In this document: piece after piece, positions 166 to 7,257 of the stretch
How positions within the stretch are numbered: position 1 is the stretch's first letter
How the letters are laid out: every line of letters starts with the position of its first letter
Virus record (IMG/VR): IMGVR_UViG_2609459831_000014
Source of the DNA: a virus
Taxonomy: Duplodnaviria > Heunggongvirae > Uroviricota > Caudoviricetes
DNA length: 7,257 nt
Direction: 5' to 3' (one strand)
The notes under the pieces: generated by a model
The model's input: only the letters and a program-made list of their open reading frames with translations
Database searches by the model: none
What the model was told of the DNA's origin: nothing
Translations under genes and position numbers: made by a program

Positions 166-408
166 TTAGTAACGCCAGCGGTCATAACGCTGATATTTCG
201 GCACTTTTGGTGCTTTAATCGCCTTAATAACCCACACCACCGCAATCGCCAGTAGTAACCACGGCAGCAACTTAATCATCAATGCCAGCATACCGCCGAG
301 GAACATAATGGCCGTCGCCACAACCAGCGCGGCGATAATGCCCAGCAACGAAACGCCGGTGACCATCAGCATGACAAAAAAGCCAATCACAAAAAGTAGT
401 TCCAGCAT
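166..408 (-). CDS. pspG: Phage shock protein G (80 aa small inner-membrane protein)
   Basis: Product MLELLFVIGFFVMLMVTGVSLLGIIAALVVATAIMFLGGMLALMIKLLPWLLLAIAVVWVIKAIKAPKVPKYQRYDRWRY is strongly hydrophobic and matches PspG as I recall it. ATG at 406-408 is preceded by GGGAG at Shine-Dalgarno distance. It lies immediately downstream of dusA, the conserved E. coli arrangement. The 150-aa track ORF 166..618 is an over-extension running through the promoter into dusA. Confidence 0.85.
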   Translation of the reverse strand: MLELLFVIGFFVMLMVTGVSLLGIIAALVVATAIMFLGGMLALMIKLLPWLLLAIAVVWVIKAIKAPKVPKYQRYDRWRY

Positions 409-2826: not shown

Positions 2827-3075
2827 ATGCGTATTGAAATCTGCATAGCCAAAGAAAAAATGACTAAAATGCCAACCGGTGCTGTGGATGCGTTAAAGGA
2901 AGAATTAACCCGACGCATCAGTAAACGTTATGACGATGTAGAGGTGATCGTAAAAGCCACCAGCAACGATGGCCTTTCTGTTACACGCACCGCAGATAAG
3001 GATTCTGCAAAAACTTTTGTTCAGGAGACTCTGAAAGATACCTGGGAATCTGCTGACGAGTGGTTTGTTCACTAA
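2827..3075 (+). CDS. dinI: DinI-family damage-inducible protein (RecA modulator), 82 aa
   Basis: MRIE..IAK...P.GA.DAL..EL.RRI...LSV.....[16 protein letters not shown] follows the DinI pattern including the C-terminal TWESAD-WFV motif. SD AGAGGG 2815-2820. Two LexA boxes immediately upstream. Confidence 0.85.
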
Positions 3076-3218: not shown

Positions 3219-3782
3219 TTATTTCGTTTGAATGCCAGTAACAGGAAATCGTTTATATAGGGTTGATAGCCCAACGTTATAGATACGTGCAACATAACGC
3301 CGTGATTTCCCTGCCGCTATGAGCGCTCCCATCTGTTGCCACTGCTCGTCGCTAAACTTCGGTCTACGCCCACCAATCCGGCCTTTGGATCTGGCAATAG
3401 CCAAACCAGCTAAAGTTCGCTCGCTATTCAAATCAGATTCATACTGCGCAGCAGAAAGAATATTACGGAAATTATAGCGACCACTTGCTGTTTTCAGGTC
3501 TACGCCATCTGTAATACTCCGAAAATTAACACCTTTTTCGTGCAGATTTTGAAACATCAATAGCGCATGCAGCACATTTCTCCCTATCCGATCTAACTTC
3601 CAGACAATCAACTCATCTCCACTTTTCATCACCGTAATTAATTCCTTTAACACAGGGCGATTAGCTGTTCTGCCACTGGCATATTCTTCATAAATTCGCT
3701 CACAGCCAGCTGACTCAAGTGCAAGACGTTGCAACTCTGTATCCTGATGATTTGTTGATACACGAACATACCCGTAAATCAT
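3219..3782 (-). CDS. pin: Serine recombinase / DNA invertase of the Pin-Gin-Hin-Cin family, 187 aa
   Basis: N-terminus MIYGYVRVSTNHQ carries the catalytic Ser in the YVRVST motif; VWKLDRIGR and a C-terminal helix-turn-helix region (GRIGGRRPK ... STLYKR) are present. Length is typical for this family. Adjacent to an invertible tail-fibre segment. Confidence 0.9.
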   Translation of the reverse strand: MIYGYVRVSTNHQDTELQRLALESAGCERIYEEYASGRTANRPVLKELITVMKSGDELIVWKLDRIGRNVLHALLMFQNLHEKGVNFRSITDGVDLKTASGRYNFRNILSAAQYESDLNSERTLAGLAIARSKGRIGGRRPKFSDEQWQQMGALIAAGKSRRYVARIYNVGLSTLYKRFPVTGIQTK

Positions 3783-3787
3783 GAGTG

Positions 3788-3814
3788 CTTCTCCTGTTGT
3801 AAAAACAGGAGAAG
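3788..3814 (-). promoter_or_regulatory. Perfect 11-bp stem-loop sequestering the invertase Shine-Dalgarno
   Basis: CTTCTCCTGTT(3788-3798) and AACAGGAGAAG(3804-3814) with a 5-nt loop. On the minus-strand mRNA the 3' arm AACAGGAGAAG holds the SD AGGAG, 8 nt before the pin AUG. No U-tract follows, so it is not a terminator. Confidence 0.5.
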
Positions 3815-3850
3815 AGGCGAAATATCACCTGATTCAGAAAAATATTTGAA
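3815..3850 (-). promoter_or_regulatory. Candidate sigma70 promoter for pin
   Basis: Minus strand TTCAAA (fwd 3845-3850) - 17 nt - GATATT (fwd 3821-3826). The -35 overlaps the outer half of the left crossover site. Weak match. Confidence 0.25.
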
Positions 3851-3867
3851 AGGTTGGTTTGGGAGAA
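3842..3867. other. Invertase crossover site, left (gix/hix-like 12+2+12)
   Basis: ATATTTGAAAGG-TT-GGTTTGGGAGAA. The inner half GGTTTGGGAGA is identical, in inverted orientation, to the inner half of the site at 5930-5955. AAACC/GGTTT arms flanking a central dinucleotide resemble Gin/Hin-type sites. Confidence 0.5.
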
Positions 3868-4356
3868 GACTCTGCATTACCTGTTGGGGTGCCTGTTCCG
3901 TGGCCTTCAGCCACTCCGCCTACAGGCTGGCTGAAATGCAATGGTGCAGCTTTTTCTGCTGAAGAATACCCGGAACTGGTAAAGGCTTATCCGACAAATA
4001 AATTGCCTGATTTACGTGGTGAGTTTATTCGTGGCTGGGATGATGGGCGTGGTATTGATGCTGGACGTGCCTTGCTAAGTCTTCAGAATGGAGGAGTGGA
4101 ATCACACACCCACCAGGGACAGCTCTTCAGAGTCAGTGATTATCGTACAAAAGAAATACCAGCATCAGAAGTTATGGGAAGAGGATATATTGCAAGCCTG
4201 ACGCCGGGTGCTGATAGCCCACTTGATTTTGATGATTATTCTGTATCCTCTAATCCAAATGGATATTTTGTCGGGAATCAGAGAACAACAGCATATGGGG
4301 TAAATGAAACCCGCCCACGGAATATTGCATTTAACTATATCGTGAGGGCTGCATAA
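3850..4356 (+). CDS. Silent alternative tail-fibre C-terminal cassette (Sv'-like), promoterless with no own start codon; ~168 codons
   Basis: Frame opens right after TGA at 3847-3849. The track start at 3859 is TTG, an in-frame Leu within K-V-G-L-G-E-D. Product (PVGVPVPWPSATPPTGWLKCNGAAFSAEEYPEL...GEFIRGWDDGRG) is a typical variable tail-fibre C-terminal domain. Stop TAA 4354-4356 overlaps the next ATG (TAATG). Confidence 0.75.
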   Translation, partial: KVGLGEDSALPVGVPVPWPSATPPTGWLKCNGAAFSAEEYPELVKAYPTNKLPDLRGEFIRGWDDGRGIDAGRALLSLQNGGVESHTHQGQLFRVSDYRTKEIPASEVMGRGYIASLTPGADSPLDFDDYSVSSNPNGYFVGNQRTTAYGVNETRPRNIAFNYIVRAA

Positions 4357-4958
4357 TGGATAACGCTGTATTAAATAGCGAGCTTATTGCCACGAAGGCG
4401 GGAAATATTCCTGTCTATAACTATGATGGTGAAACACGGGAATATATTTCCACTTCAAATGAATATCTTTCCGTTGGTGTCGGCATTCCGGCATGTTCCT
4501 GTTTAGATGCCCCTGGCACACATAAGGCTGGTTATGCAATCTGCCGTTCTACAGATTTTAACTCATGGGAATATGTGCCAGATCATCGCGGTGAAATCGT
4601 CTATAACACCGAAACGGGAGATGCCAAAGAAATCACAGCTCCGGGTGATTACCCTGAAAATACAACCACTATCGCACCGTTAACGCCATACGATAAATGG
4701 GATGGTGAGAAATGGGTGACAGATACTGAGGCACAACACGGTGCCGCAGTAGAAGTGGCAGAAGCACAACGCCAGTCACTGATTGATGCAGCAATGGCTT
4801 CCATTAGTCTGATTCAGCTGAAATTGCAGGCCGGGCGGAAGCTGATGCAGGCAGAAACCACCCGACTTAACATTGTGCTGGATTACATTGACGCGGTGAC
4901 GGCAACAGATACCAGCACCGCGCCGGATGTCATCTGGCCTGAACTGCCGGAGGCGTAG
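4356..4958 (+). CDS. Tail fibre assembly protein (Tfa/U'-like chaperone), 200 aa, silent orientation
   Basis: ATG 4356 with SD GAGGG (4344-4348), translationally coupled to the upstream cassette. C-terminus ...DTSTAPDVIWPELPEA carries the conserved Tfa terminal motif. Confidence 0.8.
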   Translation: MDNAVLNSELIATKAGNIPVYNYDGETREYISTSNEYLSVGVGIPACSCLDAPGTHKAGYAICRSTDFNSWEYVPDHRGEIVYNTETGDAKEITAPGDYPENTTTIAPLTPYDKWDGEKWVTDTEAQHGAAVEVAEAQRQSLIDAAMASISLIQLKLQAGRKLMQAETTRLNIVLDYIDAVTATDTSTAPDVIWPELPEA

Positions 4959-5367
4959 GCCATTCAATATCTGGCACACTGGAGGTATCAACCAGCTCCA
5001 GTGCGTCCAGATAATCCAGCCACGAATTATATTGCGCCAGTTCCTCGCCTTTCAGACGACCAATAGCGGCTTTACCGGGCCATTGTTTACTGTTCATGTA
5101 TTCGTTGGCCTGATTAATTAATAGCTGTCTTTTTGACTCAGAAATTTCAATAAGTTCTTCATGCGTGGGTGAAGGAATATCTGCCCACGCAGGCATTCCG
5201 TCTGCACCTGCAATACGTCGCTTACCCTGCGGAGGTGTCGCCATAAACGACTCGGCACGTCGGGTTTCAATATCTTTTGCATCATCAGGCCATGTGCCGG
5301 AATCGCGGTATACGGCCTCATTACCAGCCAGATAAAACGCATTTTTTTTAGCACTGTATTTGTACAT
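4930..5367 (-). CDS. Tail fibre assembly protein (Tfa/U-like chaperone), 145 aa, expressed orientation
   Basis: ATG 5365-5367 lies 1 nt after the tail-fibre stop, with a GGGA-type SD inside the fibre 3' end. C-terminus ...DTSSVPDIEWPTPPAVQAR carries the Tfa motif. Its 3' end overlaps the convergent tfa' by 29 nt. Confidence 0.8.
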   Translation of the reverse strand: MYKYSAKKNAFYLAGNEAVYRDSGTWPDDAKDIETRRAESFMATPPQGKRRIAGADGMPAWADIPSPTHEELIEISESKRQLLINQANEYMNSKQWPGKAAIGRLKGEELAQYNSWLDYLDALELVDTSSVPDIEWPTPPAVQAR

Positions 5368-5368
5368 A

Positions 5369-6232
5369 TTATTTCCCTACCGCAATCCAGAAAAATGAAC
5401 TCATGCTGGCTACTGGTGCTCCGCCCGCTGTTGGAATCATCAGATTTCGGACGCCGCATCCTAAATTAGTTATCGTTGGCGCTGAAATTACTGGCGACTG
5501 AACTACGTTAGGAAGCGATACCTGCTGAGGACCAAATCCCACATACATCGGGTATGCAGAGAACGCGACAGGAAACGTAATAAAGATCTCTCCAGTTGAT
5601 GATGGATTGGCTGTCCCCCACTGAATAATCAGACCTGACGGTAATTTTTGCCAGCCAGGGCTGGTCAGGCTGGATGTGAAGTCATTCATATCCGGAATCT
5701 GATTTGCCCCTGAGCCAACATCCCTTTGAGCCGCACTTTTCAGATCAAGATAAGTTCTTAGTTCAGCCTTATCCTTACCGCTTAAATCTGTCAGTGTCTG
5801 GTCTTTTGGTTGCGCATAGTCTTTTGTTGCCAGACGAACTACTGTATTTGTTCTGGCGAATCGCATATACGGGGCATTGACGTTACTACTGTCAAACCCT
5901 GCAATTTTACATTCATCACCAATTAATGCATCTCCCAAACCAAGGTTTTCGAGAGCCGTTTTCACCGTGCCATCCGATTTGATATCGCCAAACGGATTCT
6001 TGCGGCTTAACAGCAGCGCACGAAGCGCGGTAAGCAACTGGTCGTGCCGCGCCTTCTCCAGGCTGGCACCGGATGCCTCCACCACGCTGCAGAGTTCTTC
6101 CTGCAACATATCAAAGTAGTCATCATCCAGATCGGTGGCAGGTGTGCCGGTCTGGGGGTTACCACGGGTAAAACCGTTCTTCCCCGCGCCGAACTTATCC
6201 TTCTGCGCGGTTTTCGTGTCTATACGATGCAT
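5369..6232 (-). CDS. Phage tail fibre protein, 287 aa: constant N-terminal part (6232 to ~5944) plus variable C-terminal part (5943 to 5369)
   Basis: ATG 6230-6232 with SD GGAG 7 nt upstream, starting 3 nt after the stop of the upstream tail gene. The crossover site lies inside the gene at codons ...ENLGLGD.... Size and position match an e14 StfP / Mu S-like fibre (from memory). Confidence 0.85.
5930..5955. other. Invertase crossover site, right (inside the tail fibre gene)
   Basis: ATCTCCCAAACC-AA-GGTTTTCGAGAG, an imperfect dyad. Its inner half is the reverse complement of GGTTTGGGAGA at 3856-3866. Confidence 0.5.
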
Positions 6233-6235
6233 GGA

Positions 6236-6820
6236 TTACTCCGGATATTTAAAAATCACATAGGTATGCGACGGGCAGAGTTTGTTAAGAACACACTCGA
6301 CAACGGTGTCGCCCCAGATACGCAGGGCAGAATCACAGGGATCGCCACATGTCATCCAGGTGGTGTTGGTGGCGGCTGGCATGTTGATCTGCCAGTAATA
6401 CCGCCATTCCGGCGCATTCACCGCGTCAGTACAGGCCGATGAGCAGGTGAAGGTGCTTTTGTCGTATCGCGTGATGGTGGCATCTGGCCTGCCCAGGGCA
6501 GCAAGCTGTGCAAGATAAAAATCCTCGTTGATGCCGCCCGCCAGGTTAACCTTCGCATCCAGCCGTTGCTGACGCTGGCGAAGAGTCTGCGTTCCCGCCG
6601 GAATACATTCATCCGGCAGACCGCACAGACGCTCCCAGCGGTTTATCAGTTCAGTGGTGGTGCGCGGATCCAGCTCCCGCATCAGGGCATCCGCACGCTG
6701 ATGAACGCGGGTTAATGACGGTGCCGCACCGGCAATCGCCGGATCTCTGGCTGACCACGCCGGACCGGGTGGCAACAGTGCCGACAACAGACGGATGTAA
6801 TCATCGTTTGTCACGTCCAT
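6236..6820 (-). CDS. Phage tail/baseplate protein, 194 aa (Mu gp48 / e14 YmfQ-like by position and size)
   Basis: ATG 6818-6820 and stop TAA 6236-6238, 3 nt before the tail fibre start. Its start overlaps the stop of the upstream gene by 10 nt (ATGGACGTGA). Product assignment rests on synteny and size, not on a recognised motif. Confidence 0.7.
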
Positions 6821-7257
6821 GAAATCGTCCCCAGAACCGCCAGTTCATTTTTCGCAATGGAGATATTGTCTGCCGGTGCAAGCAACTGATGGCTATATTC
6901 CCCGTTCGCACCGGAAATCGCCTCACTGATACGCGATACCTTCAGTTCTCCCTGCGGATAACCATCACGCAGAAGAAACGAACGCAACTCCGCGGTGATG
7001 GCGGCTCGTATTTCTGGTGTGTCCGGCGTCACGCGGATATGAAAATCCACCGTATGTGCCACCGGCCTGAATACATACAAATCAGAGCCTGCCACCGGGG
7101 CCAGTGGCACGATATGTTGTCTTGCTGCCGTTTCCGTTGATTCTTCCGGAATGGGATTAATCAGGTCACTGCTGGCAATCATCACACCGACAGTTCCCGT
7201 TCCCATCCAGTGACGGTATGTCCATGCGCGGGTAATGCCGGGCACTTCTTTAGCCCA
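6811..7257 (-). CDS. Phage baseplate protein, C-terminal part only (baseplate J-like by synteny); 5' end lies beyond the window
   Basis: Minus-strand frame is open to the window edge: codons upstream of the track start (GTG at 7243-7245) read W-A-K-E with no stop. Stop TGA 6811-6813 overlaps the next gene start. Family assignment is inferred from the gp47-gp48-S order of Mu-like tail modules. Confidence 0.65.

Follow-up and report, generated by a model that had tools for sequence, protein, structure and literature searches.

The 7,257-bp stretch of viral DNA analysed here (the window; IMG/VR record IMGVR_UViG_2609459831_000014) very probably encodes a Pin-type (Din-family) switch with two states, in which site-specific DNA inversion exchanges the tip of a tail fibre. 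A switch of this kind, carried by an E. coli prophage, is of the ordinary textbook sort known from Mu, P1 and K-12 e14. The host element is a prophage with an e14-like/Mu-like tail, integrated into dusA at its 5′ end, with pspG-dusA adjoining a tyrosine integrase in the window. The dusA prophage itself is undescribed, and a literature search found no paper combining a dusA prophage, an invertase and a tail fibre. The original prediction held that the crossover sites are placed so that inversion fuses the constant fibre N-terminus in frame to a silent C-terminus; this is the known Gin/Cin/Pin design rediscovered, since the in-frame placement of the sites is conserved across the whole family.

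The switch is delimited by an exact 13-bp inverted repeat, TTGGTTTGGGAGA, located at positions 3854-3866 (plus strand) and 5931-5943 (minus strand). Each strand of the window carries the 13-mer exactly once, the shuffled expectation being 0.20 matches when up to two mismatches are permitted, and no third site-like sequence, which would suggest Min-type multiple inversion, was found in the window. The repeat bounds an invertible segment of 2090 bp (3854-5943), and the homology to other genomes begins and ends at these points. Two 26-bp crossover sites in inverted orientation surround the two copies. The invertase-side site (3842-3867) is composed of the outer half ATATTTGAAAGG (3842-3853), the core TT (3854-3855) and the inner half GGTTTGGGAGAA (3856-3867), and the fibre-side site (5930-5955) of the inner half ATCTCCCAAACC (5930-5941), the core AA (5942-5943) and the outer half GGTTTTCGAGAG (5944-5955). 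Both sequences quoted in the original prediction were found in the window where it had placed them, and the conservation it described for the inner half-sites (11/11) holds, except that the exact repeat extends to 13 bp, that is, TT plus those 11 positions.

The two 26-mers were compared with known pix, gix and cix sites, and the AA/TT core is identical in both. The fibre-side site matches the fibre-side pix of K-12 e14 at 25 of 26 positions, and the inner half and core of the invertase-side site match e14 pix at 14 of 14; both are pix sites. The fibre-side site has a dyad symmetry of 9/12. The half-site ATATTTGAAAGG is, as had been noticed, a poor dyad partner, matching its partner half at 5/12 positions, compared with 7-9/12 in eight other sites. 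It also agrees with the family consensus at only 5/12 positions, which makes it the poorest among the 18 half-sites compared. Three further genomes with a dusA prophage share the invertase-side site (±1 nt).

The fibre-side site lies inside the fibre gene, which in its current state encodes 287 aa (5369-6232, minus strand) and reads, at 5950-5930, E95 N96 L97 G98 L99 G100 D101 (GAA AAC CTT GGT TTG GGA GAT). On the invertase side, the plus strand reads TGA AAG GTT GGT TTG GGA GAA from position 3847. The codon map confirmed that GGT TTG GGA is in one codon phase at both sites, and that the central TT/AA is directly 5′ of it, the TT occupying positions 2-3 of the preceding codon in both copies (CTT, Leu97, in the fibre and GTT in the silent cassette). 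Since the fibre gene contains the fibre-side site, and since G-L-G is read in one phase through both inner half-sites, the constant N-terminus can be joined to either tip. Inversion of 3854-5943 in silico, followed by translation, gave an uninterrupted in-frame fibre of 263 aa with no out-of-frame junction, which terminates at the cassette's own stop, overlapping the ATG of the cassette's chaperone gene. The fusion without frameshift thus stands as originally proposed, with the lengths of its parts corrected from about 96 and 165 aa to 97 constant and 166 collar-cassette residues. The two junctions contain …TTGAAAGGTTGGTTTGGGAGATGCATT… and …GTCTTCTCCCAAACCAAGGTTTTCGAG…. The crossover dinucleotide is not resolvable in silico, because any exchange inside the 13 identical bases yields the same product.

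The constant part of the fibre is an StfP-type N-terminus comprising, by the codon map, codons 1-97 (5942-6232, minus strand), and the expressed variable C-terminus is gp53-like, forming residues 98-287 (5369-5941, minus strand; Pfam Gp53-like_C, E 7e-13). The silent variable C-terminus is a collar domain of 166 codons starting at G98 (3856-4356, plus strand; Pfam Collar, E 1.5e-15), which has no ATG of its own, its frame being closed upstream by the TGA at 3847-3849, and which becomes fibre residues 98-263 after inversion. The two cassettes converge, and each has, downstream of its C-terminus, a tail-fibre assembly chaperone gene of its own, encoding a TfaE-like protein of 200 aa in the silent cassette (4356-4958, plus strand; Pfam Caudo_TAP, E 4e-30) and a protein of 145 aa in the active one (4930-5367, minus strand; Pfam Caudo_TAP, E 2e-29). 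The upstream tail genes of the fibre operon (6236-7257, minus strand), identified by Pfam Phage_Mu_Gp48 and Baseplate_J and by homologue annotation, encode a YmfQ/Mu gp48-like protein (6236-6820, minus strand) and a baseplate J/gp47-like protein (6811 to the window end, minus strand), and the region 5944-7257 is 98-99.6% identical to the ymfQ-stfP regions of many E. coli genomes. Related genomes annotate the silent cassette as a separate 'tail fiber protein' or as a pseudogene, and intact 263-aa fibres are flagged 'incomplete', or named 'integrase' or 'RNA polymerase beta'.

The phase [N/Y]-L-G-L across the site is common to Mu S, P1 S, e14 StfP and the P2-like H protein. The protein-level conservation across five different fibres would fit a repeat that is merely a conserved coding motif, N-L-G-L-G, held by protein-level constraint and serving as no recombination site. 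We consider this very improbable, as the invertase-side copy has no ATG and a stop two codons upstream, yet does not differ at a single base, not even at synonymous positions. Furthermore, the core is the exact point at which homology from one genome to another ends, which already contradicts a purely coding origin, and the 26-bp context matches pix sites with an invertase gene adjoining.

This gene encodes a Din-family serine DNA invertase of 187 aa (3219-3782, minus strand; Pfam Resolvase, E 3e-36, and HTH_7, E 7e-12), with the catalytic-serine motif GYVRVST, and lies 72 bp from the crossover repeat. The protein is 56% identical to K-12 PinE, and its closest solved structure is that of Mu Gin (3uj3, E 1e-56), the alignment being gap-free in both cases. 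At least 1000 E. coli and Salmonella contigs encode exactly this protein. Over aa 31-180, Pin, Gin and Cin share 76-83% identity, whereas the present invertase reaches only 48-53%, and its helix E is strongly diverged relative to PinE and Gin; on these comparisons it appears as an outlier within the Din family.

In the P1 annotation the recombinational enhancer is at nt 19-90 of cin, and the positionally equivalent stretch of the present gene (nt 19-90; 3693-3764, minus strand) is a putative enhancer that is 69-71% identical to cin, gin and pinE, against 55-56% for the rest of the gene. By position and pattern, it holds two Fis-like 15-mers, a proximal one matching at 13/15 and a distal one at 9/15, the latter without the flanking G. 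By homology, inversion would be expected to depend on Fis and the enhancer. Because the distal Fis site is not recognisably conserved and helix E is diverged, both the inversion rate and the cofactor dependence could differ from those of the classical enzymes. The invertase leader contains a perfect 11-bp hairpin (3788-3814, minus strand), an inverted repeat that pairs with the AGGAG Shine-Dalgarno sequence, with a predicted RNA fold of -24.8 kcal/mol (z = -4.9). The hairpin is kept in dusA-type prophages, whereas the leaders of e14, Mu and REL606 lack it. When the stretch from the site to the ATG was scanned for a sigma-70 promoter of the invertase gene, the minus strand gave no match, and the one weak plus-strand match is inside the invertase gene.

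Inverted repeats can support rare RecA-dependent inversions, and on this general ground the segment might flip by homologous recombination across the repeat and not via the invertase. This route is improbable in the extreme: the identity is only 13 bp, efficient RecA exchange requires far more, and a dedicated invertase with the matching site type is encoded 72 bp away. In e14, deletion of pinE and pinQ locks the segment (PMC12529663).

In the Pin-type inversion that we favour, dimers of the serine invertase (3219-3782) would bind the two inverted 26-bp sites. Din-family invertases cleave with a 2-bp stagger, and by homology the cuts would be expected at the central dinucleotide, the identical and non-palindromic TT/AA core, after which one half-site pair would rotate by 180° and religate, flipping 3854-5943. 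The 97-residue N-terminus would then be joined either to the gp53-like tip (287 aa, the present state) or to the collar tip (263 aa), and with each tip the assembly chaperone that follows it would come under the late tail operon; a change of host range would be the consequence expected by homology.

Both junction types exist in nature. In complete E. coli genomes there are intact 263-aa fibres with the junction ...ALENLGLGE(G/D)SALPVG... that match the prediction at 98% identity; SM107 encodes one of them in the same dusA prophage, with an identical invertase protein. In 514 complete genomes at least 80% of the predicted inverted-state junction DNA is covered, and full-length relatives of the predicted fusion in the protein collection have 95-98% identity. 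The invertase-side junction is joined to a collar cassette in 158 genomes, and to a gp53-like cassette in others (SM107, SOI121 and strain 998), and in 23CRST025 and SM107 the homologous segments (96% identity) have opposite orientations, with the same flanks on either side. Draft genomes carry the present state, for example GCA_000713975.1, and SRR14012094 is a sample with the prophage. Among 5,426 complete E. coli genomes searched for the window's flanks together with the exact segment, in either orientation, no record covered 80% or more; likewise, no inverted copy of the exact segment was found in the genome searches, and the exact 263-aa fusion was absent from the protein collection on exact look-up.

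The orientation differences between genomes could come from cassette replacement and not from in-place inversion, in which case the architecture would be a frozen relic that no longer flips, owing to its weak site next to the invertase gene or to divergence of the invertase itself. The missing inverted twin of the exact segment in complete E. coli genomes and in the protein collection agrees with this, as do the 5/12 outer half-site, the diverged helix E and distal Fis site, and the whole segments that have clearly been exchanged between prophages. We nevertheless consider a relic improbable, given that the invertase ORF is intact, with its catalytic motifs kept and the identical protein on at least 1000 contigs, and that members of the prophage family share the odd outer half-site. 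Moreover, the same invertase flank carries both junction types, and in the Hin system a comparably poor outer half, that of hixR, is tolerated.

Among the known inversion systems, the closest counterpart of the proposed Pin-type switch is the P segment of the cryptic K-12 prophage e14 (PinE; stfP/ycfK-tfaP and stfE-tfaE cassettes; pix), in which inversion at TTGGTTTGGGAGAAGG was demonstrated experimentally (PMC12529663; PMC4272514). The gene order is the same (ymfQ, fibre N-terminus, cassette and chaperone, chaperone and cassette, invertase), the crossover is at the same residue (ENLGLG, aa 95-100), e14-type prophages have the constant region and ymfQ at 98-99.6% identity, and the silent collar cassette has its homologue in stfE-tfaE (89-91%). 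In contrast, the present prophage is at dusA with its own tyrosine integrase, whereas e14 is at icd, its invertase and PinE share only 56% identity, its leader and invertase-side outer half-site are unrelated to their e14 counterparts, and the active gp53-like cassette differs from K-12 stfP. In addition, no short leader ORF runs across the present invertase-side site, because of the TGA at 3847-3849. The dusA site, the PinE identity and the unrelated outer half and leader rule out e14 proper (icd, PinE, pinE-side pix). The switch works like that of e14 and the tail module is shared, but the prophage is a different one.

The Mu G-segment (Gin; gix; S/U and S′/U′) resembles the present system in its Mu-type baseplate genes upstream (gp46/47/48 homologues), in an invertase gene outside the segment with its 5′ end adjoining the site, in a constant N-terminus with two variable C-termini that each have a chaperone, and in the identical codon phase (Q-N-L-G-L). 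It differs in the gix core, which is GA and not AA, in the half-sites, in a constant part of 170 aa, in far larger cassettes, and in Gin itself, which is about 55% identical to the present invertase. The P1 C-segment (Cin; cixL/cixR; enhancer annotated within cin) shares the AA core, the 26-bp imperfect dyads and the codon phase (Q-Y-L-G-L), with the crossover placed by annotation between the two T's at the centre of cix, but cin is transcribed toward the segment, with cixL overlapping its 3′ end, and the constant part is about 454 aa.

A different relationship is seen with a P2-like prophage remnant of E. coli B/C, in which the invertible segment is identical to that of the window at 2086 of 2090 positions, both inner half-sites included, with identity no better than random beyond 1-3 bp from the core at either end. 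There, however, the outer half-sites differ, the flanks are unrelated, a P2 H-type shaft of 350 aa forms the fibre N-terminus, and the invertase is PinE-like and truncated. Similarly, SM107 has two prophages 880 kb apart, with different invertases and different baseplates, whose segments are identical (1891/1891) and in opposite states. Segment sharing among Mu, P1 and Shigella was noted already in the early 1990s. We tentatively raise the possibility that the crossover sites also act as the joints of a horizontally mobile cassette, in a natural recombinase-mediated cassette exchange between unrelated prophages in one cell. The whole invertible segment would move by two site-specific exchanges at pix-type sites, and one receptor-binding tip pair could thereby be plugged onto different fibre shafts. 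Alternatively, the segments may be shared by gene conversion through short homology.

The placement of the sites, as originally stated, matters little in itself, and confirms that a tool-free reading can recognise the classical invertible tail-fibre design. It has value for annotation, given the mislabelled silent cassettes and 263-aa fibres of related genomes, and host-range predictions for such prophages should weigh both fibre isoforms. A diverged invertase with a weak site, together with identical cassettes in unrelated co-resident prophages, could bear on the spread of receptor-binding modules between prophages.

This stretch belongs to the E. coli chromosome and carries pspG (166-408, minus strand), dusA (542-1579, minus), a tyrosine integrase gene (1668-2765, plus), a DinI-like gene (2827-3075, plus), a gene for a small serine recombinase (3219-3782, minus), a short tail-fibre gene (5369-6232, minus), and Mu-gp48/YmfQ-like and baseplate-J genes (6236 to the window end, minus), with two convergent cassettes between the recombinase and tail-fibre genes. 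The left 3.85 kb, with the integrase, DinI and invertase arrangement, was found at a coverage of at least 80% in 635 of 5,426 complete E. coli genomes, and ymfQ-stfP regions of prophages of the type of e14, the cryptic prophage of K-12, match the right 1.3 kb at 98-99.6% identity. Judged from these matches, the locus forms the end of a prophage that is integrated within the 5' end of dusA and carries an e14/Mu-type tail module. The 345-aa DusA open reading frame ends 88 bp from the divergent tyrosine integrase gene (542-2765), which suggests that the 5' end that dusA now has comes from the element. The 3' ends of the convergent chaperone genes overlap by 29 bp (4930-4958), as do those of tfaP and tfaE in e14.

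We identified a 13-bp exact inverted repeat, TTGGTTTGGGAGA, at 3854-3866 (plus) and 5931-5943 (minus), which is present exactly twice in the window; shuffled sequences gave a mean of 0.2 matches to this 13-mer, with two mismatches permitted, and a search of the window for a third site-like sequence returned none. The original prediction, that inversion fuses the constant N-terminus of the fibre in frame to a silent C-terminus, agrees with the codons at both ends: the fibre reads GAA AAC CTT GGT TTG GGA GAT (E95-D101) over 5950-5930, the plus strand reads TGA AAG GTT GGT TTG GGA GAA from 3847, and GGT TTG GGA has the same phase in both, the central TT forming positions 2-3 of the preceding codon. 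Inverting 3854-5943 in silico, the check proposed with that prediction, yields an open, in-frame fibre of 263 aa, in which 97 constant residues precede 166 from the collar-domain cassette; its stop codon overlaps the ATG of this cassette's own Caudo_TAP chaperone. At the reciprocal junction, the gp53-like cassette (5369-5941, minus) is left without a start codon, behind a TGA.

The frame of the silent collar cassette (3856-4356, plus) is closed upstream by a TGA at 3847-3849 (plus). The cassette has an AAGG five bases ahead of a TTG at 3859 (3847-3861, plus), which is why ORF callers and PGAP call it as a separate 'tail fiber protein' of 164-165 aa. For e14, PMC12529663 reports a functional product of the invertase-side locus.

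Written as inner half, core and outer half, the crossover sites of the window are ATCTCCCAAACC AA GGTTTTCGAGAG on the fibre side (5930-5955) and TTCTCCCAAACC AA CCTTTCAAATAT on the invertase side (3842-3867), and those of K-12 e14 are TTCTCCCAAACC AA GGTTTTCGAGAG on the fibre side and TTCTCCCAAACC AA CGTTTATGAAAA on the pinE side. By this alignment the fibre-side site is a pix site, matching that of e14 at 25 of 26 positions, and e14 has its inner half and core in common with the invertase-side site. The 12-2-12 layout is also that of Mu gix and P1 cix, and in the P1 record the two central bases flank the annotated crossover. Codon phase across the site is identical in the fibres of Mu (QNLGL), P1 (QYLGL), e14 (ENLGL), the P2-like prophage of E. 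coli B (AYLGL) and the window (ENLGL), the core being positions 2-3 of a Leu codon in all five, so that in-frame placement is the family's conserved design and nothing peculiar to this locus. Inversion at TTGGTTTGGGAGAAGG in e14, fusing stfP to stfE, has been demonstrated experimentally (PMC12529663; PMC4272514). The conserved inner and divergent outer halves pointed out beforehand follow from the architecture of the switch, since the inner halves move with the segment, and the outer ones diverge because one is constant-region coding sequence (ALEN) and the other lies in the invertase leader. The half-site already singled out as a poor dyad partner, ATATTTGAAAGG, indeed scores 5/12 against the family half-site consensus, the poorest among the 18 compared (8-12 for the remaining ones), and the other dusA-type prophages that we compared keep it to within 1 nt.

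At a coverage of at least 80%, 514 complete genomes contain the predicted active junction (400 nt) and none contains the present junction, whose matches stop at the crossover site. Intact 263-aa fibres, differing from the prediction at five positions, are encoded by strains SM107 and 15.03CC, the former having the same dusA prophage and an identical invertase protein. The protein collection contains full-length 263-aa relatives with 95-98% identity to the predicted fibre, the exact sequence being absent from it, and five contigs encode the present-state fibre of 287 aa in the same neighbourhood. PGAP flags the intact fibres of SM107 and 15.03CC as 'incomplete, missing C-terminus' (loci L004, 3968-4489, and L006, 5813-6334), and public records name relatives of both isoforms 'integrase' or 'RNA polymerase beta' (P0003, P0123-P0125).

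On the invertase flank of the dusA type, a collar cassette is joined in 158 genomes and a gp53-like cassette in others, and 23CRST025 and SM107 carry homologous segments (96%) in opposite orientation between the same flanks. The two cassette types on one flank and the opposite orientations indicate that recombination at the invertase-side site has happened in this prophage lineage. The main rival would have the switch frozen in the window prophage and the orientation differences produced by cassette replacement, which we consider improbable. The intact natural product, the pix-type sites and the Din-type invertase support in-frame fusion by inversion, and a Din-type inversion switch of the tail-fibre tip is, in our view, very probable: two matching 26-bp sites with an identical non-palindromic core are inverted relative to each other, the gene of a Din-type invertase is 72 bp away, each cassette has one chaperone, and the alternative product, in frame through the equal phase of the sites, occurs in nature. 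As in the family, invertase dimers would assemble on each site and synapse, followed by cleavage of the core with a 2-bp stagger, rotation of the subunits through 180 degrees and religation (summarised in PMC3798978). The cassette facing the late tail operon would be the expressed one, and inversion would change receptor specificity.

Resolvase and HTH_7 domains are present in the recombinase; its alignment to PinE is gap-free (56% identity), and Gin is its closest solved structure. Over residues 31-180, Pin, Gin and Cin are 76-83% identical among themselves and the window enzyme is 48-53% identical to them, so that by sequence identity (48-56% to Pin/Gin/Cin) it is an outlier of the Din family. 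Divergence is strongest at residues 101-120, the start of helix E, where F104, H106, M108 and M114 of Gin are N, R, I and Y; we take this region to be the equivalent of the Hin oligomerization helix. A passage in PMC4513852 describes the hydrophobic Phe105 and Met109 of that helix as controlling tetramer formation and subunit rotation. The stretch equivalent to the annotated P1 enhancer (gene nt 19-90) shows higher conservation than the remaining gene sequence; its distal Fis-like 15-mer, matching at 9 of 15 positions, is not conserved. Regulation of this invertase may differ from that of the classical enzymes. Directly upstream of its ATG, a perfect 11-bp stem with a 5-nt loop (3788-3814, minus) pairs with the AGGAG Shine-Dalgarno (RNA fold z = -4.9); the hairpin is conserved among prophages of the dusA type, is missing from the leaders of e14, Mu and REL606, and may hold down translation of the invertase.

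Sharing of invertible segments among Mu, P1 and Shigella was noted long ago. The P1 record lists similarities of such segments. In sequence comparisons, the whole invertible segment behaves as a module with the crossover sites as boundaries. Window 3854-5943 is identical at 2086 of 2090 positions to 4006-6095 of L003, the REL606 locus with the P2-like prophage remnant of E. coli B and C, where the segment is fused to an unrelated 350-aa P2 H-type shaft beside a truncated PinE-like gene; the flanks are at random identity, with breakpoints 1-3 bp from the core dinucleotide on both sides. In SM107, the 1,891-bp segment of the dusA prophage (L006, 4155-6045) is identical (1891/1891), in opposite orientation, to that of a second prophage 880 kb away (L011, 3006-4896), which has a PinE-type invertase, another baseplate and another fibre N-terminus, only ~80 bp of constant region being common to the pair. 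Identical segments in such different settings suggest that cassettes are exchanged or homogenised between co-resident prophages. Both cases of sharing fit exchange at the crossover sites themselves, although short-homology gene conversion could also have produced them. Our literature search found no paper on a dusA prophage with an invertase and tail fibre; the switch in the window is an undescribed member of a thoroughly known class.
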